From the NCBI GenBank assembly GCA_040384805.1, contig JAZKIP010000001.1:51981-115980 (forward strand): 64,000 nucleotides of DNA, written 5' to 3'. Positions 24,953 to 43,747 of the stretch are shown one piece after another (within the stretch, counting starts at the first letter, position 1; every line of letters begins with the position of its first letter). Both the position numbers and the translations under genes were made by a program. The notes under the pieces were generated by a model that did not search any database, was not told the DNA's origin, and saw only the letters and a list, made by a program, of their open reading frames with translations. This DNA is from Patescibacteria group bacterium. GTDB lineage: Bacteria > Patescibacteriota > Minisyncoccia > Phycocordibacterales > UBA9973.

Positions 24953-26443
24953 TTAAGAAATCAATTCTTTTAATAATTTAAGGACAGTCTGGGGATTTGC
25001 CGATCCATTGGTGTCCTTCATTATTTTCCCTACGAGTGACATGAGAGCATTTTCTTTGCCGCTTTTGTATGTTGCAACGACGGCAGGATTGGCGTCAATT
25101 ACTTTCTGCACGATTTCTGTGAGCGCTCCCTCGTCATTCTTTTGTAGGAGGTCTTTGTCTGTTGCGATTTTCCGGGGAGATATGTCCTCGTGAACGATCA
25201 TGGCAAGGATATCTTTTGCCGCGCGCGATGATATTTCACCGCCCGTTGCCATCATAATTAATTCGGCAAAGTTCTCCGCGCGTGGCATAGAAATATTCGG
25301 ATTATTCTTTTTAAGGCCCAGATAATCCGATGTAATATAGTTGGACGCGGTTTTGACCTTGTCGTTGTCTTTTAAGATTTCCGCAATATTTTCAAACCAG
25401 GCGCCGAGTTCGCGATCAACGATATATGTTTCCACGTCTTCGTCTTTGATTCCATAATCTGTCTTGTAGCGGTCGCGCTTTACTTGCGGAAGCTCCGGAA
25501 TGCTGCTGCGAAGTTTTTCAATATCAAACGCTTTCGATAGATACAGTTTCGGCAGATCAGGATCAGGGAAATAGCGGTAATCGTTGGCATTTTCTTTTGA
25601 CCGTTGAGAGAATGTGGATTGCTTGGCCTCATCCCAGCCGCGCGTTTCTTGTACGATCTCCGTACCGCGACCTCCATCCAAAAGATCGATCATGCGCTTT
25701 GTTTCGTATTCTGCGGCTCTTTCAACAGAGCGGAATGAATTGATGTTTTTAACTTCGACTTTCGTGCCAAGCGTATCAGGATCGGAAGATATGGAAATAT
25801 TGAGCTCAACTCTCATTTGTCCTTTGTCCATATTTGCTTCGGATACGCCAAGATATCGCAAAAGAAGCTGAAGTTCGCGGCCGAAATCCCCCGCTTCTTT
25901 CGCACTGTGGATGACCGGCTCGGTGACAAGTTCCATAAGAGGGACTCCTGCACGGTTGAAATCGACAAGGGAGTAACCTGCCTGTCCGGCAGGCAGGTTC
26001 CCCTTGTCGTGCTTACTGTTCGCCGTGTCTTCTTCAAGATGAATGCGGGTGATGGCGATGCCATTGAGCATGCCGCCCGAGACAATCGGATATTTATATT
26101 GGGAGATTTGATATGCTTTGGGAATATCAGGATAGAAATAATTCTTGCGGTCGAACTCGGTAAAGTCTGCGATGGTCGCTCCTAGAGCAAGACCTACCGT
26201 GATGACATTCTCGACAGCCTTCTTGTTGATGACAGGAAGGGTGCCGGGATGAGCCATGCAGACGGGGCAGATATTGATGTTAGGCTTCTCTTCGTCAGGA
26301 TTGTTCGCGCAACCGCAGAACATCTTAGATTTGGTATTGAGTTCGGCGTGAATTTCAAGGCCGATGGTTGTATGGTATCGATTCTCCATGTATTGATGAT
26401 TATAAGGCTCAATCGTCGAATTTCCAAATCTGCGAATATGCAT
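24953..26443 (-). CDS. gatB: Asp-tRNA(Asn)/Glu-tRNA(Gln) amidotransferase subunit B
   Basis: 496 aa; ...IGLEIHAELNTKSKMFCGC... and C-terminal GatB/YqeY domain. Confidence 0.9.
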   Translation of the reverse strand: MHIRRFGNSTIEPYNHQYMENRYHTTIGLEIHAELNTKSKMFCGCANNPDEEKPNINICPVCMAHPGTLPVINKKAVENVITVGLALGATIADFTEFDRKNYFYPDIPKAYQISQYKYPIVSGGMLNGIAITRIHLEEDTANSKHDKGNLPAGQAGYSLVDFNRAGVPLMELVTEPVIHSAKEAGDFGRELQLLLRYLGVSEANMDKGQMRVELNISISSDPDTLGTKVEVKNINSFRSVERAAEYETKRMIDLLDGGRGTEIVQETRGWDEAKQSTFSQRSKENANDYRYFPDPDLPKLYLSKAFDIEKLRSSIPELPQVKRDRYKTDYGIKDEDVETYIVDRELGAWFENIAEILKDNDKVKTASNYITSDYLGLKKNNPNISMPRAENFAELIMMATGGEISSRAAKDILAMIVHEDISPRKIATDKDLLQKNDEGALTEIVQKVIDANPAVVATYKSGKENALMSLVGKIMKDTNGSANPQTVLKLLKELIS

Positions 26444-29094: not shown

Positions 29095-30573
29095 TTATCC
29101 GAGCATTTGAATTGCCGTTCGTATGCGACTTATCGTTTCCTCCTTGCCGAGTATTTCTGCCAAGACAAATGGATCAGGCGACTTGTCGCGTCCCGATAAG
29201 GCGAATCGCATGGGCCACAGAATGTCACCTCTGCCCACTTCCTCGGCATAGGGCCAAAGAGTTTCTTTGATATGCTCTTTCGTAAAGTTAGTATCGGAAA
29301 TCGCACCAAGAAGATCTGTGACATGAGAAAGATATGAAGACAGGATTCTATATTTATCATCCTCGGGTATCTTTGAAGATTTAAAGAAAAGAGTCTCCTT
29401 ATCATATGTTGGCTTGCCGAAGAAATAGGCGAGTTCTCCCTCTTCGGCCATGCGAACGACATCGATCCCTTTCGAAATTCGCTCCATGATAACAGGCGTA
29501 ATATTATGAATGATAGTGTTGGTATAGCCGGGGAGCTCTATAAGGCCTTCAGGGATGAATTTTCTTATATACTCTTCTTGTTCCTCGTATGAAAGGCGTT
29601 TTAAATGCTCACGATTGATCCATTCGAGCTTCTCCTCGTTAAATTGTCCGCCGCTTTTATGGACATGATCAAGATCGAATAACCGTACGAATTCGTCCGG
29701 AGTGATTATCTCCGTTTCGTCTCCTGGATGCCAGCCGATAAAGGCAAGGAAGTTCAACATTGCTTCCGGGAGGTAACCTTCTTTTTGGTAATCAAGGACA
29801 TCCTTGGCGCCATCGCGCTTGCCGAGTTTCTTGTTGCCGCCGAGAGCCATAATTGGCGGAAGAGTCGCTATTTCAGGCCTCTCTATTTCAAGAGCATCAT
29901 ACAATGCCAAAAATTTCGGCGTCGAAGAGATAAATTCATTCGCTCTCATGATATGTGTCACTCCCATTTCAAGATCATCGATGACATGGGCAAAATTGTA
30001 TGTCGGATATCCGTCGCTTTTGATGAGTATGAAATCATCGAGAGCCTCGGGTCCTGCAGTAAGATCTCCCATCACGAGATCATGCCATTCATATGATTTG
30101 ATGTCTGTGATCTTGAAACGCAAGGCTTGGGTTCCGTCCCATGCGGGCGGATTCTCCGGACGGTGATCCCTGTAGAGAAATGGGCGTTTCTCTACATCCG
30201 CTTTCTGGCGAAAAGATTCAAGTTCCTCCGATGTATAGGGATCAGCATAGGCAAGACCCTTATCTAGGAGGATTTTTGCGTATTTTTTATAGGATTCAAG
30301 GCGTTCCGACTGCAGATACGGCGCATGAGGTCCTCCGATATCAGGACCTTCATCCCATGAGATGCCAAGCCATGATAAGGATTTCACTATGTGATCGATT
30401 GACCCCTCGACTTCTCGCCCTTTGTCAGTATCTTCGATGCGAAGAATAAAAGTGCCCTCATGTTTGCGGGCATATGCCCATGCGAAAAGAGCAGTTCGGA
30501 CACCGCCGATATGCATATAGCCTGTCGGACTTGGAGCGAAACGCGTTACTACTTTTTTGGGGCTATGATTCAT
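29095..30573 (-). CDS. gltX: glutamyl-tRNA synthetase
   Basis: 492 aa; N-terminal RFAPSPTGYMHIGG (HIGH) and KLGKRDG (KMSKS-like) class I motifs typical of GluRS. Confidence 0.9.
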   Translation of the reverse strand: MNHSPKKVVTRFAPSPTGYMHIGGVRTALFAWAYARKHEGTFILRIEDTDKGREVEGSIDHIVKSLSWLGISWDEGPDIGGPHAPYLQSERLESYKKYAKILLDKGLAYADPYTSEELESFRQKADVEKRPFLYRDHRPENPPAWDGTQALRFKITDIKSYEWHDLVMGDLTAGPEALDDFILIKSDGYPTYNFAHVIDDLEMGVTHIMRANEFISSTPKFLALYDALEIERPEIATLPPIMALGGNKKLGKRDGAKDVLDYQKEGYLPEAMLNFLAFIGWHPGDETEIITPDEFVRLFDLDHVHKSGGQFNEEKLEWINREHLKRLSYEEQEEYIRKFIPEGLIELPGYTNTIIHNITPVIMERISKGIDVVRMAEEGELAYFFGKPTYDKETLFFKSSKIPEDDKYRILSSYLSHVTDLLGAISDTNFTKEHIKETLWPYAEEVGRGDILWPMRFALSGRDKSPDPFVLAEILGKEETISRIRTAIQMLG

Positions 30574-35655: not shown

Positions 35656-37074
35656 TTATTTTTTAGATATTTCTATACTTAACTCTTTTAATTGCTTGGA
35701 GGATACTTCTGACGGTGATTCCATCATGAGATCTTTTCCTTCCCCTGTCTTTGGAAAAGGAATGACTTCGCGGATATTAGGTTCTCCTTCAAGAAGCATT
35801 AATAGGCGGTCAAAACCCCAGGCGATACCTCCATGTGGAGGTGTCCCCGTGCCTAAAGCATGGAGCATGTGGCCGAAATTTTTATCGATATTCTCGTCGG
35901 TATGCCCAATAATACGAAGGACTTGTTGAAGGGCGTCAGGTGTGTGGTTTCTGATGCTTCCTCCTCCGATCTCATATCCGTTAAGTATTATATCGTATTG
36001 GGTTGTCAGAATGTTGCCTATGTCTTTTCTTTCCATAAGACTATTCATATGCTCTGGAATCGGTGCGGAAAAGGGATTATGAGTGAAAGTCCACTCACCT
36101 TCGGCTTGTGGATTATCAGACTTATCGGTTCTTTCGAAGAAAGGAAATTCGACAACCCACGCAAATGCAAGAATGTTCGGGTCATCTTTGTCGTTTCGGA
36201 TATCAGGCCTGTCGTTGCCATATTTTTCCATAGCTTCTTTGTATGTAATTCGGGGAAAAGGAATCTGCTGAATCTTTTTTTCAGGATAAAGCTTCGTTAC
36301 AAGATCGATCAATAATTTTTCGTTGACATTCATAACATCTTCTTGCTCAACAAAACTCATTTCAAGATCAAGCTGTGTAAATTCTGGTTGGCGGTCACCA
36401 CGCGTGTCTTCGTCACGCATACAGCGCGCGATCTGGAAATATTTTTCCATACCCCCAGCCATTAAAAGCTGCTTGTACTGCTGGGGCGACTGTGGCAATG
36501 CATAGAAAGTTCCGGGGTATAACCGAGACGGCACTATATAATCACGTGCTCCTTCAGGTGTCGATTTCGTAAGTATAGGAGTTTCAATTTCAATAAAATT
36601 CTCCTTATCAAGGAAATCACGAATGAATTTAGTAACTCGATGACGATTGCGAATATTCTTCTGCATGCGCGGACGGCGCAGATCAAGGTAGCGGTATTGC
36701 AAGCGGTGCTCTTCTCCGATCTCTTTGCCGTCGCTTGTTACATCGAAGTTTGGCGTATTTGAAGCATTGAGGATCTCAATTCCAATAATCTCAAGCTCTA
36801 TGTCGCCATTAACCACTCCTTCTTTGATATTTCTCTCTGGTCGCTTGTTTACTAAGCCTTTTATTTTGATAACCCACTCTGAGCGGACTTCTTTGACTTG
36901 CTCCATTGCTTCCGCATGGTTCGGGAGAACTACTCCCTGAACTTTGCCCGTCATGTCACGCATGTCCATGAAGACAAGCTTGCCTTGGTCGCGCCTGACA
37001 TCAACCCATCCGGCGATGAGGACTTCTTTTCCAACATGCTCTCCTAAATCTTTTATATATATTCTGTCTTTCAT
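35656..37074 (-). CDS. aspS: aspartyl-tRNA synthetase (compact form; likely non-discriminating given gatB)
   Basis: N-terminal OB anticodon-binding fold; class II motif 2 FQIARCMRDEDTRGDRQPEFTQLDLEMSF; motif 3 near the C-terminus. Start set at MKDRIY (37074) because the ORF-track start (37137) would run through the T-box terminator. Confidence 0.85.
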   Translation of the reverse strand: MKDRIYIKDLGEHVGKEVLIAGWVDVRRDQGKLVFMDMRDMTGKVQGVVLPNHAEAMEQVKEVRSEWVIKIKGLVNKRPERNIKEGVVNGDIELEIIGIEILNASNTPNFDVTSDGKEIGEEHRLQYRYLDLRRPRMQKNIRNRHRVTKFIRDFLDKENFIEIETPILTKSTPEGARDYIVPSRLYPGTFYALPQSPQQYKQLLMAGGMEKYFQIARCMRDEDTRGDRQPEFTQLDLEMSFVEQEDVMNVNEKLLIDLVTKLYPEKKIQQIPFPRITYKEAMEKYGNDRPDIRNDKDDPNILAFAWVVEFPFFERTDKSDNPQAEGEWTFTHNPFSAPIPEHMNSLMERKDIGNILTTQYDIILNGYEIGGGSIRNHTPDALQQVLRIIGHTDENIDKNFGHMLHALGTGTPPHGGIAWGFDRLLMLLEGEPNIREVIPFPKTGEGKDLMMESPSEVSSKQLKELSIEISKK

Positions 37075-37280
37075 ATGTGACCTTAAGCTTAGAGAAAACA
37101 AAAATCGCCTCTCTAAACGTATTAAATAATAATACATTTATAGGGGCGATGTTTGTCGCGGTGCCACCCTACTTTTGAACTCTTTGCGCTTTATCGCAAG
37201 CAGTGCGGAAGGTTCTACTTGTCCGTCTGGGGCGGATTTTCTTCCTTCGCCTCCCCAGTGTCAGCTGGTTCAAAGGCATA
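37075..37280 (-). promoter_or_regulatory. T-box riboswitch leader of aspS (Asp specifier GAC candidate)
   Basis: Minus strand AAAGTAGGGTGGCACCGCGAC (revcomp of 37155-37175) matches the T-box consensus AATTAGGGTGGNACCGCG. Upstream is a GC-rich stem CTGGGGAGGCG...CGCCCCAG with an AG bulge, and GGACAAG (codon GAC + A). Downstream, the ATCGCC...GGCGAT helix plus TTTTTGTTTT precedes the ATG. Confidence 0.6.
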
Positions 37281-37316
37281 TATTTATAGTATCACAAAGA
37301 TTTCGAATAAAAAAGC

Positions 37317-37595
37317 TTAATGAATATCCTTCGCGATGAGGAATTCATACGGCACGGAAATGACGAATGTTATGCCCACAAGAATCCAATAAAAGGGTGT
37401 AAAAGCGTAATACATTACCTCGTCCTTTTTCCGCATGCCGAAATACCATTTCTGGACAGCAGTCTGGAAAGCATTAAGCGGGATATAAATAATTCCTAAA
37501 GCCACGGTCAAAAGAACGCGCACAGGCTTAAGGAGCATGATGGCAAAATAGATAGCGGCTATGATCAGTATGACCCGTATGATTTCGTAGAGCAT
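37317..37595 (-). CDS. small two/three-TM membrane protein (hypothetical)
   Basis: 92 aa hydrophobic ORF, 8 nt upstream of trpS. Confidence 0.35.
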   Translation of the reverse strand: MLYEIIRVILIIAAIYFAIMLLKPVRVLLTVALGIIYIPLNAFQTAVQKWYFGMRKKDEVMYYAFTPFYWILVGITFVISVPYEFLIAKDIH

Positions 37596-37602
37596 ATAGG
37601 CA

Positions 37603-38607
37603 TTATAAATTTACTCCTATTTTATCGCGCACTTCGGTCATTTTCGCATCCATGAAGACTTTCGCCTTGTGGGCACCTTCGCGAAGAATCTGGCGGACAA
37701 GATCGGGATCGTTTTCGTATTTTTTCCTCCTTTCCCTCAGGGGAGAGATATATGAGATAATTTCCGATGCAAGCATGTCTTTCGATTCTTTATATCCAAT
37801 ACCTCCATCCTGATATCGTTTTCGCAAAGTGCCGATATCTTCATTGTTGAGAAATAATTTATGAAGAGCAAAAATATTGCATGTCTCGGGATCTTTTGGC
37901 TCCTCGGGAGTTTTCGAATCCGTGACGATGCTCATGACAGCTTTCTTGATCTCTTCATCGCTTCCAAATAGCGGGATAATATTGCCATAACTTTTCGACA
38001 TTTTTCGCCCGTCAGTTCCCGGAACGATCGCGACTGTTTCTAAGATCATAGGTTCCGGCATTTTGAATGTCTCGCCGAAAATATTATTGAATTTCTGTGC
38101 CGTATCGCGCGCATATTCAATATGCTGTTTCTGGTCGGCTCCGACAGGAACGATATCGGCATCATGAATCAAGATGTCTGCAGTCATCAGAAGCGGATAG
38201 TCAAAAAGACCCATGGTAACCTCTTTGGCTTTCATATGAGCATCCTTGTAGGCTGTTGCGCGTTCAAGGTAAGCGACAGTCGTAATACAATTGAAATACC
38301 ATGTAAGTTCGGTGACATACGGGAGATCGGACTGCTTGAAGATAATTACTTTGGCAGGATCAAGTCCTGCAGCAAGATAATCCATGGCGATTTCGAGCGT
38401 TCCTTGGGAAAGCTTCTCCCTGTCCTGAACTGTCGTTAATGCATGGAGATCGACAATGATGATGCGGCTGTCATAAGCGTCCTGAAGATCAACAAATTGC
38501 TTTATAGCTCCGAAATAATTGCCTATATGGAGCGTTCCTGACGGCTGAATACCTGAAACGAGTACTTTTTTCATCCCATATGAGATAGGGATCCTATGAT
38601 CTCCCAT
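37603..38607 (-). CDS. trpS: tryptophanyl-tRNA synthetase
   Basis: 334 aa; GIQPSGTLHIGNYFGAI (HIGH-type) and KMSKS (RKMSKSYGN) motifs; size typical of TrpRS. Confidence 0.9.
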   Translation of the reverse strand: MGDHRIPISYGMKKVLVSGIQPSGTLHIGNYFGAIKQFVDLQDAYDSRIIIVDLHALTTVQDREKLSQGTLEIAMDYLAAGLDPAKVIIFKQSDLPYVTELTWYFNCITTVAYLERATAYKDAHMKAKEVTMGLFDYPLLMTADILIHDADIVPVGADQKQHIEYARDTAQKFNNIFGETFKMPEPMILETVAIVPGTDGRKMSKSYGNIIPLFGSDEEIKKAVMSIVTDSKTPEEPKDPETCNIFALHKLFLNNEDIGTLRKRYQDGGIGYKESKDMLASEIISYISPLRERRKKYENDPDLVRQILREGAHKAKVFMDAKMTEVRDKIGVNL

Positions 38608-40299: not shown

Positions 40300-40947
40300 A
40301 TGGCAGAGCCTATGCCATTTTTCACTAACGGGATGAACCCCATTGAGCGCCTCGCGGAATATTTTAAAGAATTTCCCGGTATCGGCGAGCGTCAGGCAAA
40401 GCGCTTTGTTTATTTTCTTCTTCGCAAAAATCCCCAGTATGTCAAAGATCTTGCCGATGCGGTTCTTATTCTTCGTGATTCCATTCATCAGTGCTCCTCC
40501 TGTTTTTTATTCTTCAAAGGGAATGCGGGAGAACTCTGCGACATATGCGGGAATCCCAAGACTGACTCGAGCACACTTATGATCGTAGAAAAGGATGCCG
40601 ATGTTGAAAGCATCAAAAAGAGCAAGATATATACCGGCAAATATTTCATATTAGGAGGTTTGGTGCCGATTGTAACAAAAGAGACTCCGACGTTCGTTCG
40701 GACAAAGGAATTAACAAGAACCATCGAAGAACGATCGAAAACGTCTGATCTTGCGGAAATTATTATTGCTTTGTCTCTCAATCCTCAAGGAGAACATACT
40801 GACATGTATGTGCGGGAACTTTTATCCCCGCTTGAAAAAAAATACGGGTTCAAGATCGTATCTCTTGGCCGAGGTCTCTCGACCGGTACGGAGCTTGAAT
40901 ACTCCGACAGCGAGACGATCAAGAACGCTTTGCGGAACAGGTCTTAA
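40300..40947 (+). CDS. recR: recombination protein RecR
   Basis: 215 aa; HhH N-terminus, C4 zinc finger CSSC...CDIC, Toprim domain. Confidence 0.85.
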   Translation: MAEPMPFFTNGMNPIERLAEYFKEFPGIGERQAKRFVYFLLRKNPQYVKDLADAVLILRDSIHQCSSCFLFFKGNAGELCDICGNPKTDSSTLMIVEKDADVESIKKSKIYTGKYFILGGLVPIVTKETPTFVRTKELTRTIEERSKTSDLAEIIIALSLNPQGEHTDMYVRELLSPLEKKYGFKIVSLGRGLSTGTELEYSDSETIKNALRNRS

Positions 40948-40953
40948 TAAAAT

Positions 40954-40976
40954 AAAACCGCGCACTGCGCGGTTTT
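40954..40976. terminator. bidirectional rho-independent terminator between recR and rplU
   Basis: aaaaccgcgca-ct-gcgcggtttt with T-run; the rplU stop overlaps its 3' edge. Confidence 0.75.
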
Positions 40977-41340
40977 ATTTTATTGCTGAGATTTTAACTT
41001 CTACGAACGGCTGTCGATGCCCGTTCTTTTTATGGTAGCGGCTTTTCTGCTTGTATTTAACAACGGTAACGGTCTTTGCTTTGCCTGACCGCTGAAATAG
41101 CGATTCAACGGATGCGGTAGGTATATACGGAGAACCGATAGTCGTATCGATTCCGTTATCGACGAGAAGCACCTTGTCGAAGATAATCTTATCGCCGAGA
41201 GCGAATTCTCCTTCGAGTTTTTCAACTTTAAGAACATCGCCAACGGCAACTTTGTATTGCTTGCCGCCTGTTTCAATTACCGCGAATTCCTTGGAGTCGG
41301 ATGCTACTTTCTTTTTCTGTGGTGTTGTTTTTGTTGCCAT
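40975..41340 (-). CDS. rplU: 50S ribosomal protein L21 (with N-terminal basic extension)
   Basis: 121 aa; ...FAVIETGGKQYKV..GDVLKVEKL... L21 core. No rpmA follows, because recR is convergent. Confidence 0.85.
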   Translation of the reverse strand: MATKTTPQKKKVASDSKEFAVIETGGKQYKVAVGDVLKVEKLEGEFALGDKIIFDKVLLVDNGIDTTIGSPYIPTASVESLFQRSGKAKTVTVVKYKQKSRYHKKNGHRQPFVEVKISAIK

Positions 41341-41438: not shown

Positions 41439-42350
41439 ATGATATCAAAATACGCTTATCTGGGCCAAATATGGATCGATCTTGACTCCCCGACCGAAGA
41501 AGAACTTGGCCATGTGATGGAAGAATATTCTATTCCGAACCTTGTTGGCGAAGAGATACGTTCACGAAATATTCAATCGAAGGTCGATCTTTTCCCTTCT
41601 TTTATATATCTTGTTATGCATTTTCCGCATGTAGGCCGCGCGGGAAGCCACAATGCCGATCACGAGATCGACTTTATCATGGGCGCTGATTTCCTCATTA
41701 CCGTTCATTATGGATTTATACCGTCACTCCATGAGTTTTCAAAGACATTCGAAGTTGATGCGATCTTAGAAAAAAAAACCAGCATTAGCCATGCCGGAAT
41801 CCTTTTTCTCTCCCTTATTAAGACACTCTACTCCCATTCGCAAGATCAGCTCCGCGACATACATGTTCTCTTGAAAGAAACTGAGAGAAAAATATTCGAG
41901 GCTACTGAGCGCAAGACCGTAGTTATGATTTCCAATACCAATCGCATGCTCCTTGGTTTTCGGCAGGCTCTTCGATTCCATAAGAGCATTTTGAACTCTT
42001 TTGAACAGAGCGCCATGCGTTTTTACGGCGAAAGCTTCGCCCACCATATTTCACTGATTCACAGCGAGTATGATAAGACACAGGCCATTCTCGACAGCCA
42101 CAAAGAAATTCTGGATGATCTGCGCGATACGAACGATTCTCTGCTTGCCAACAGGACGAACGAGACGATGAAAATCCTGACCATCATTACATTTCTCCTG
42201 TCGCCTTTTACCGTCATCTCAAGCATCTTCATGATGAATACGGATTCCCTGCTCATTTCGTCCCTTTCGGATTATTATCTCGTTGTCGGAGCGATGCTTC
42301 TGATAAGCATTATTATCTTTATTTATTTTAAAAAGAAAAAATGGCTCTAA
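41439..42350 (+). CDS. corA: CorA-family divalent cation transporter
   Basis: 303 aa; cytoplasmic alpha/beta domain plus two C-terminal TM helices. The usual GMN motif is MMN here (IFMMNTD). TATAAT about 10 nt upstream. Confidence 0.65.
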   Translation: MISKYAYLGQIWIDLDSPTEEELGHVMEEYSIPNLVGEEIRSRNIQSKVDLFPSFIYLVMHFPHVGRAGSHNADHEIDFIMGADFLITVHYGFIPSLHEFSKTFEVDAILEKKTSISHAGILFLSLIKTLYSHSQDQLRDIHVLLKETERKIFEATERKTVVMISNTNRMLLGFRQALRFHKSILNSFEQSAMRFYGESFAHHISLIHSEYDKTQAILDSHKEILDDLRDTNDSLLANRTNETMKILTIITFLLSPFTVISSIFMMNTDSLLISSLSDYYLVVGAMLLISIIIFIYFKKKKWL

Positions 42351-43747
42351 TACTCTACAATTCCCTGTCCCGTGACAAAGAAATGTTTGAACCGCTCGGT
42401 CACACCGGCACTGTGGGCCTGTATACCTGCGGCCCGACCGTATATGATTATGTGACTATCGGGAATTGGCGCACATATACCTTGGGAGACATCACGGCCC
42501 GCGTTCTCTCCTTCGACGGCTATGCGGTGAAATATTTCATGAATATCACCGATGTCGGACATTTGACTGGTGACAACGAAGGTGATGCAGATACGGGCGA
42601 GGATCGCATGGAAAAGGCCAAGAAACGCGAAGGGAAAACCGCATGGGATGTCGCTCATTTTTATGCCGATGACTTTTTGATAGGCTACAAAAAACTGAAC
42701 CTTTTTCCTCCTGAAAAATTTCTCAAGGCAACCGACTATATTCCAGAGCAAATCGCTCTGGTTGAGCGTTTGATGGATCATGATCTTGCATACGCGATCG
42801 ATGATGGAATCTATTTCAATACAGCCGCATATGAGGCGCGAGGCTTCATGTACGGAGAACTTTCGAATCTCGATCATATCAAAGCAGGCGCGCGCGTTGA
42901 GTTCAATCCGGAGAAAAAGAATCCCCGAGATTTCGCATTGTGGAAATTCAGCCCAAAAGATGAGAAACGCGATATGGAGTGGGAAAGCCCCTGGGATATC
43001 GGATTCCCCGGATGGCATATAGAATGTTCCGCCATGAGCATGAAGTTTCTCGGCGAGCAGTTCGATATCCATGTCGGCGGCGAAGATTTGAAAAGCACTC
43101 ATCATCCGAATGAAATAGCACAGTCACAGGGAGCAACCGGCATGGTTCCCTTCGTAAAATATTGGATCCATGGAGCATTCCTGCAAGTTGACGGAGGACG
43201 CATGGGGAAGAGCCTTGGCAATGCATATACTCTTCACGATATCGAGAAGAAAGGGATAAATCCTCTTGCGCTCCGCTACTTCTATATGACCAGCCATTAC
43301 AGATCCCCTCTTAATTTTACATGGGAAGGGCTTGAGGCATCACAAAATGCGCTTCATAAATTATATAAAGAGTATAAAAAGCTTTCACAGGGGAGCAACT
43401 CGACAACGAGTATGGCCCATGTTGAAAAATTCACCGAAGCTCTCAATGATGACCTGAATCTGCCCAAAGCGCTTGCGGTGTTATGGGAACTTATAAAAGA
43501 CGACACCATAGCGGATGCGGATAAGAAAGAGACGCTTTTGCGCCTCGATACTGTCTTGGGCTTTAACCTTTCTTCTTTAAAAGAAGAAATTATCCCAGTG
43601 GAAGTGACGCGTCTTGTGGCGTTGCGAGAACAAGCTCGTCGTGATAAAAAATGGCAGGAAAGCGACGCTTTCAGAGCCAATATCAAAGCTCTCGGCTTTG
43701 ATATTGTTGATACCGATCACGGTCCTGTCGTCTCTCCTCTCTCGTAG
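42341..43747 (+). CDS. cysS: cysteinyl-tRNA synthetase with non-canonical signature motifs
   Basis: 468 aa; LYTCGPTVYDYVTIGNWRTY (zinc Cys; HIGH replaced by TIGN), GWHIECSAM zinc site, RMGKS in place of KMSKS, C-terminal anticodon-binding helical domain. Confidence 0.8.
   Translation: MALILYNSLSRDKEMFEPLGHTGTVGLYTCGPTVYDYVTIGNWRTYTLGDITARVLSFDGYAVKYFMNITDVGHLTGDNEGDADTGEDRMEKAKKREGKTAWDVAHFYADDFLIGYKKLNLFPPEKFLKATDYIPEQIALVERLMDHDLAYAIDDGIYFNTAAYEARGFMYGELSNLDHIKAGARVEFNPEKKNPRDFALWKFSPKDEKRDMEWESPWDIGFPGWHIECSAMSMKFLGEQFDIHVGGEDLKSTHHPNEIAQSQGATGMVPFVKYWIHGAFLQVDGGRMGKSLGNAYTLHDIEKKGINPLALRYFYMTSHYRSPLNFTWEGLEASQNALHKLYKEYKKLSQGSNSTTSMAHVEKFTEALNDDLNLPKALAVLWELIKDDTIADADKKETLLRLDTVLGFNLSSLKEEIIPVEVTRLVALREQARRDKKWQESDAFRANIKALGFDIVDTDHGPVVSPLS

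Follow-up and report, generated by a model that had tools for sequence, protein, structure and literature searches.

The leader of the aspartyl-tRNA synthetase gene (aspS) of a bacterium of the Patescibacteria (Candidate Phyla Radiation, CPR) with a tiny genome can be regarded, with high confidence, as a genuine tRNA-sensing T-box riboswitch that acts by transcription attenuation. The leader spans 240 nt of the minus strand of the window, the whole 64,000-nt stretch of DNA that was analysed, and lies between a 92-aa ORF, whose stop is at 37317, and aspS. The analysis directly establishes which sequence elements are present, that they covary, that two folds exclude each other and that the codon in the Stem I loop is linked to the downstream gene.

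The minus-strand leader contains AAAGUAGGGUGGCACCGCGAC, which the original prediction had read as a match of about 15/18 to the T-box consensus. The agreement proved better than this: the 14-nt core AGGGUGGCACCGCG at 37170-37157 (-) is exactly the consensus AGGGUGGNACCGCG, as quoted in PMC11297988, and is unique in the 64 kb window even when up to two mismatches are tolerated. The Rfam T-box model RF00230 aligned over its full length (model positions 1-219) to 37282-37139 (-) with 44.4 bits, a score below the Rfam gathering score of 93, and with E-values of 1.3e-8 locally and 1.6e-6 over the entire window. Default annotation misses the leader because its score falls under the gathering score. 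At gathering thresholds, Rfam reported two tRNAs and no T-box in the window, and the T-box was recovered by reporting on E-value rather than by the gathering cut-off. The shortfall is due to the deletion of the distal half of Stem I and to the missing Stem III: 74 distal Stem I positions of the model are reduced to 4 nt, and the 15-nt Stem III insert to 1 nt in the window. The alignment is good at the Stem I base, in Stem II, in the F-box region and in the antiterminator. The leaders of nine relatives scored 25-53 bits against the same threshold of 93.

No second T-box was found in the window by Rfam at E < 0.1 or by the covariance model R1 described below, and the trpS, gltX and cysS genes of the window showed no match to either, so T-box control here appears restricted to aspS. 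At 40878-40980 (+), Leu_leader (RF00512) gave a weak Rfam match of 28.8 bits (gathering score 50; E 0.071), probably due to chance.

Structural domains of the leader and their conservation

The structure was evaluated in leaders from related genomes and from metagenomes. Fourteen full leaders were aligned with MAFFT (alignment A1) and scored for a 21-pair structure comprising the base and upper helix of Stem I, the outer helix of Stem II, and the antiterminator helices A1 and A2. In this alignment 95.9% of the cells were paired and 15/21 pairs presented compensatory changes, against 30-48% pairing in slid controls. The covariance model R1, built from the same 14 leaders, gave one match in the window (127 bits) and matches in 21/80 related Patescibacteria loci, each located 5' of an AspRS gene. 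With 22 leaders, pairing was 94.5% and compensatory changes were present in 17/21 pairs, and the slid controls for the alignments of genome relatives were 30-49% paired.

For the metagenomes, the search pattern fixed the Stem I K-turn and upper helix and the T-box core, and placed no constraint on the codon, on Stem II or on the antiterminator's 3' half; it covered spacings of 62-92 nt from Stem I to the T-box, a range out of which Stem II-less variants fall. This codon-agnostic pattern recovered 53 leaders, all matched by R1 with 79-137 bits, and their 44 distinct sequences presented 98.9% of cells paired. An AspRS is encoded in the operon of 22/22 genome leaders and of 49/49 metagenome leaders whose downstream sequence was long enough. 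Some of these enzymes are shorter bacterial AspRS like that of the window, and others are archaeal-type Asp-tRNA(Asn) ligases (NF003483, 455-516 bits, cutoff 353). Three loci carry a small ORF between the T-box leader and aspS; it encodes 168 aa in L060 (2488-2994) and 132-136 aa in L088 and L108, whose products are mutually similar.

Stem I (37277-37249, -) is an ultrashort hairpin of 29 nt, delimited by the RF00230 alignment, covariation and folding, and its length is the same in 75/75 leaders. Its sequence, in order, is GCC-UUUGAA-CCAG-[CUGACA]-CUGG-GGA-GGC, with the helix GCC/GGC at the base, a 4-bp upper helix CCAG/CUGG and the 6-nt apical loop CUGACA. In each of the three alignments, pairing in both helices amounts to 90-100% and compensatory changes are present, and the isolated Stem I folds with -10.1 kcal/mol. 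The K-turn (GA motif) usual at the base of a T-box Stem I is present by its sequence pattern, from which the three-dimensional kink is predicted: UUUGAA (37274-37269) and GGA (37254-37252) provide a UUU bulge and the G.A/A.G pairs, and positions G10, A11, A29 and G30 are invariant in the 14-leader alignment. The distal Stem I platform of Classes I and II, formed by the T-loops of the AG bulge and distal loop and stacking on the tRNA elbow, is absent from the leader.

The Specifier codon is GAC (Asp) at 37262-37260 (-), within the apical loop (37264-37259), and is followed by the conserved purine A37259; a codon for the amino acid of the regulated gene, with its purine, is present before aspS as GAC-A. 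The loop reads NN[G/A]ACA in 75/75 leaders (22 from genomes and 53 from metagenomes), with 57 GAC, 18 AAC and no other codon, and the metagenome pattern had left the codon free. The 18/75 AAC (Asn) leaders are those of L017, L048, L053, L062, L039, L065, L080, L037, L051 and L078 and of eight metagenome loci. In L062 (1417-4410), the AAC leader is followed by tandem AspRS genes, the first for an archaeal-type ligase (NF003483, 481 bits) and the second for a bacterial-type enzyme.

Stem II (37248-37208, -), identified by covariation, consists of the outer helix GAAGG/CCUUC, the S-turn strands AGAAA and AGUAGAA (37219-37213) and the inner hairpin CCG/CGG. Compensatory changes occur in 5/5 pairs of the outer helix, which is 99.5% paired in the 44 distinct metagenome leaders, where the search pattern did not constrain Stem II. 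There is little or no variation in the AGUAGAA and GAAA columns of the 14-leader alignment.

The Stem IIA/B pseudoknot (CGCACUGCUUGCGAUAAAGCG, 37207-37187, -) follows, with IIA formed by CGC (37207-37205)/GCG (37197-37195) and IIB by UGCUU (37202-37198)/AAGCG (37191-37187). An H-type pseudoknot occurs at the equivalent site in 10/13 Stem II-bearing leaders, and its IIB pairs vary (UGCUU/AAGCG, UUUUGCU/AGCAAAA, CCGC/GCGG, UUUGC/GCAAA, AUCU/AGAU, GAAGC/GCUUC and others); the summed pseudoknot score was 90.5, against 43.5 +/- 8.8 in shuffles (maximum 65.5). Taken by itself, the window equally allows the hairpin UUGCG/CGCAA (37199-37184), which was considered as a Stem III, and is not decisive between the two; the IIA/B pseudoknot is preferred by homology with the relatives. 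The window has no Stem III, an element that usually belongs to the discriminator domain; from the pseudoknot to helix A1 there is just GAGUUCAAAAGU. Stem III is present in L008, L017, L015, L019 and L060 and absent from the other relatives.

The antiterminator (37171-37141, -), which includes the T-box sequence at 37170-37157, is supported by consensus, folding and covariation. It is formed by helix A1 (UAGGG/CCCUA), the 7-nt bulge UGGCACC and helix A2 (GCGA/UCGC), folds as predicted with -10.2 kcal/mol, and has both helices 97-100% paired with compensatory changes. The UGGC at 37166-37163, in this bulge, is the complement of a tRNA 3' GCCA and is the probable acceptor-end sensor, as originally predicted. 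In bacteria, both tRNA(Asp) and tRNA(Asn) have G73 as discriminator base, a base that would suit UGGC; the UGGU found in 8/53 metagenome leaders corresponds to a G.U wobble with G73. No tRNA(Asp) or tRNA(Asn) gene was found in the window or in the 133 fetched loci.

The intrinsic terminator (37150-37095, -), indicated by folding and by the relatives, is the hairpin AUCGCCCCUAUAAA...UUUAGAGAGGCGAU (AUCGCC...GGCGAU) at 37150-37104 followed by UUUUGUUUU at 37103-37095; it had been proposed with this helix and tract, and its stability (-20.5 kcal/mol, z = -7.97) bears this out. Its 5' strand AUCGCCCCUA is the antiterminator 3' strand, and folding showed that the two structures share CGCCCCUA and are mutually exclusive. 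The arrangement typical of a T-box, two helices with a 7-nt UGGN bulge exclusive with a terminator, is present in the leader. The consensus promoter and terminator scan of the window missed this terminator because its loop exceeds the 8 nt limit of the scan. A hairpin with a U-tract overlapping the antiterminator was detected by scripted scan in 20/21 genome relatives, and in the remaining one, L051, the terminator is visible by eye and lies under the thresholds of the script.

After the terminator, the segment UCUCUAA (37095-37089, -) is perfectly complementary to UUAGAGA (37116-37110), located midway along the terminator 3' strand. A perfect complement of 6-8 nt occurs at the equivalent site in about 25/60 distinct leaders, with covarying sequences. 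A UCUCUAA/UUAGAGA helix is possible only in read-through transcripts.

The aspS gene and its upstream region

The aspS gene (35656-37074, -) encodes a bacterial-type aspartyl-tRNA synthetase of 472 aa, which matches NCBIfam NF001750 with 629.8 bits (cutoff 443) in two stretches of the 590-position profile. The first stretch covers profile positions 15-296, and the short enzyme may have lost the insertion (GAD) domain. Its best relatives, with 63-81% identity, belong to Paceibacterota, Nomurabacteria, Taylorbacteria and other Patescibacteria MAGs, and the length is similar in all 80 relatives.

The ATG at 37074 is supported as the start of aspS, in agreement with the shift from 37137 to 37074 in the original prediction, and the annotation of the start codon is corrected in this way. 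The relatives begin at the equivalent MK(D/E)RIYIKDL, with AT-rich non-coding DNA 5' of it; the ATG at 37137 falls within the terminator loop; and a Shine-Dalgarno-like AAGG is located at 37084-37081 (-).

A candidate promoter with the extended -10 box TGaTACTAT was located at 37294-37286 (-) from the sequence and the relatives. The 22 related leaders present a TATAAT-like hexamer 3-18 nt 5' of Stem I, often with TG before it and with a TTGCA-like -35 element, and it is from this conserved -10/-35 arrangement that we infer the promoter, with a putative transcription start about 1-2 nt before Stem I. The simple consensus promoter scan of the window did not call this box.

The leader is part of a same-strand gene run formed by trpS (37603-38607), the 92-aa ORF and aspS. 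The ORF (37317-37595, -), between trpS and the leader, encodes a hydrophobic product without an NCBIfam match. The leader is absent in the closest aspS relatives, L001, L002, L004, L007 and L011, which indicates that it is dispensable and that its presence is patchy. The same 92-aa ORF (…KVQKWYLPMWKKDK…FAPFYWIL…) is found 5' of aspS in these five T-box-less loci. The window also contains gatB (24953-26443), gltX (29095-30573) and cysS (42341-43747).

Proposed mechanism and alternative readings

The proposed mechanism follows established T-box biology (PMC7583486, PMC10482949, PMC11297988). Transcription would begin just 5' of 37277, and the nascent leader would form the short K-turn Stem I hairpin, displaying GAC in its 6-nt apical loop, next to which the S-turn-bearing Stem II and the IIA/B pseudoknot would fold. 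By analogy with solved Class III complexes, Stem I, Stem II and the pseudoknot may together shape a groove in which the anticodon stem-loop of tRNA(Asp), with anticodon GUC, is clamped. When this tRNA is uncharged, its 3' GCCA would pair with UGGC and stabilise the weaker antiterminator (37171-37141), allowing read-through into aspS. When it is aminoacylated, GCCA pairing would be blocked, and the stronger terminator (37150-37104 plus the U-tract) would stop transcription before aspS. Within this scheme, tRNA binding, the geometry of the groove, the promoter and the regulatory outcome are inferred from the conserved elements. The control of aspS by competition between terminator and antiterminator, as in the original prediction, is supported by the exclusive folds and the covariation.

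The original prediction had also placed the decoding domain differently, with a Stem I made of the GC-rich pair CTGGGGAGGCG (37258-37248)/CGCCCCAG (37234-37227), an AG bulge and an A-rich, platform-like loop, and with the Specifier in GGACAAG (37224-37218). The two segments do exist and are complementary in the window, and GGACAAG does hold a GAC followed by A, but this fold is highly improbable. The helix is 40.3% paired in the relatives, as in controls (39.6% shuffled, 26-43% slid), without covariation, and the columns of GGACAAG read GTGCAAG, AAGCAAG, AAACTAG and the like, so the GAC is not conserved at that alignment position. The helix is furthermore incompatible with two covarying elements, the 3' strand of Stem I and Stem II, to which its bases really belong, the Rfam model also assigning them to Stem II. 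The covarying 29-nt hairpin, with no platform and with its GAC in the apical loop, is therefore retained as Stem I.

That the T-box works mainly on translation, by sequestering the ribosome-binding site as in most Class III members, is very unlikely, even though the leader has no platform of the kind regarded as necessary for tRNA to be captured during transcription. Control at the level of transcription rather than translation is indicated by the hairpin and U-tract and by a Shine-Dalgarno sequence located past that tract: a GC-based hairpin directly before UUUUGUUUU is the signature of an intrinsic terminator, it recurs in the genome relatives as described above, and AAGG and ATG lie 11-21 nt past the U-tract, outside both helices. 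It is scarcely credible that the element is an ordinary terminator of the upstream trpS/small-ORF transcript with a T-box-like motif, or the relic of a decayed T-box. Its position inside the same-strand run and the leader-less spacer of the closest relatives would suit such an origin; against it, the covariance-model match spans the full length, every domain is conserved and covaries in the 75 leaders of diverged genomes, the loop codon is always GAC or AAC, and the leader precedes an AspRS gene in every operon that could be evaluated, regardless of the upstream content. A functional T-box that attenuates transcription remains the preferred reading.

Relation to known T-boxes and significance

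Class III T-boxes are defined by a short, platform-less Stem I, a Specifier in a 5-6 nt apical loop and a required Stem II (PMC10482949; PMC7583486), and the known examples are actinobacterial ileS leaders, as in Mycobacterium tuberculosis and Nocardia farcinica. The decoding half of the aspS leader matches this definition in its predicted structure. Shared features are the short Stem I with a basal K-turn and without a distal platform (IDTM), the hexanucleotide apical-loop Specifier followed by a purine (CCAG-[CUGACA]-CUGG), the Stem II S-turn, the IIA/B pseudoknot, the T-box sequence and the bulged antiterminator-type helix. Work by Sherwood, Grundy and Henkin in 2015 reportedly described the actinobacterial ileS T-boxes of Class III as mostly translational. 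The usual Class III context (Shine-Dalgarno sequestrator, ileS, Actinobacteria) was not found here, and, with "mostly" translational being the wording of the literature, that context is usual rather than absolute. The aspS leader differs in that a U-tract-bearing intrinsic terminator, and not a Shine-Dalgarno sequestrator, serves as its expression platform, and in that it is specific for Asp (Asn in relatives) in Patescibacteria, whereas Class III is specific for Ile in Actinobacteria. In addition, Stem III is absent in the window, and some relatives are entirely without Stem II.

With Class I (Bacillus subtilis tyrS type; RF00230), the leader shares attenuation by competition between antiterminator and terminator, the T-box sequence, the K-turn, the Stem II S-turn, the IIA/B pseudoknot and the regulation of a cognate synthetase gene. 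In contrast to Class I, its Stem I has about 29 nt rather than about 100 nt and has no internal Specifier loop, AG bulge or distal loop platform. Since the platform is missing, a contact with the tRNA elbow is not expected. According to reviews, transcriptional T-boxes generally need a long platform Stem I for fast tRNA capture (PMC7583486), a point that speaks against the present reading.

The alternation of codons has a possible explanation in the neighbouring genes. The presence of gatB in the window makes it plausible that AspRS also charges tRNA(Asn), and AAC is then a sensible alternative Specifier. The AAC leaders would sense tRNA(Asn), as implied by their codon and consistent with a non-discriminating AspRS acting with GatCAB. 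Saad et al., in 2012/2013, reportedly found Asn-specifier T-boxes on genes of the tRNA-dependent Asn pathway in Clostridium acetobutylicum. The relatives with AAC before AspRS would resemble these in their predicted reading of tRNA(Asn) and in a possible connection with an indirect Asn-tRNA pathway; on the other hand, those of C. acetobutylicum are Firmicute leaders with a long Stem I, and the window leader presents GAC (Asp).

Variants shorter than the window leader were also observed. Stem II and the IIA/B pseudoknot are missing in L005 (2839-2932), L031 (778-872) and L063 (2825-2923), and also in L015, L019, L051 and L078. These leaders retain the ultrashort Stem I, the GAC/AAC loop, the T-box, the antiterminator and the terminator, and have a linker of 22-35 nt, or just Stem III, where Stem II would be. 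None of the four published classes combines the absence of the elbow platform with that of Stem II. In L005, L031 and L063, a short linker is all that separates Stem I from the antiterminator, which is followed by the terminator. If these derivatives work, they would be two-contact "minimal" T-boxes (anticodon and NCCA), in contradiction with the rule that a platform or Stem II is needed for tRNA binding.

Concerning novelty, TBDB restricted the search with its short-Stem-I model to Actinobacteria and to leaders that Rfam had detected (PMC7778990). This scope, together with scores of 25-53 bits against a threshold of 93, suggests how the Patescibacteria leaders escaped notice. A search of the open-access literature for T-boxes together with Candidate Phyla Radiation, Patescibacteria, Parcubacteria or Saccharibacteria found no paper, which is weak evidence. 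The combination of Class III-type decoding with an intrinsic terminator, Asp/Asn-specific and in CPR bacteria, appears, as far as the open-access literature shows, to be unreported. More tentatively, and as a possibility that may well not hold, these leaders could represent an undescribed T-box lineage of Patescibacteria dedicated to AspRS, with a platform-less Stem I and an intrinsic terminator, free switching between GAC and AAC, and natural minimal derivatives (L005, L031 and L063).

The very short natural variants are attractive as minimal building parts of engineered tRNA sensors, and the occurrence of a platform-less Stem I before an intrinsic terminator provides natural test cases for the kinetic argument on tRNA capture. 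The alternation of GAC and AAC, together with gatB, ties the specificity of the riboswitch to the dual Asp/Asn role of a non-discriminating AspRS. T-boxes are usually regarded as a Gram-positive device, and CPR bacteria have few known regulators and do not make most amino acids. The view in the original prediction that a T-box in such a reduced genome is noteworthy is upheld, and the leaders analysed here suggest that tRNA-sensing riboswitches are present, but unannotated, in CPR bacteria.
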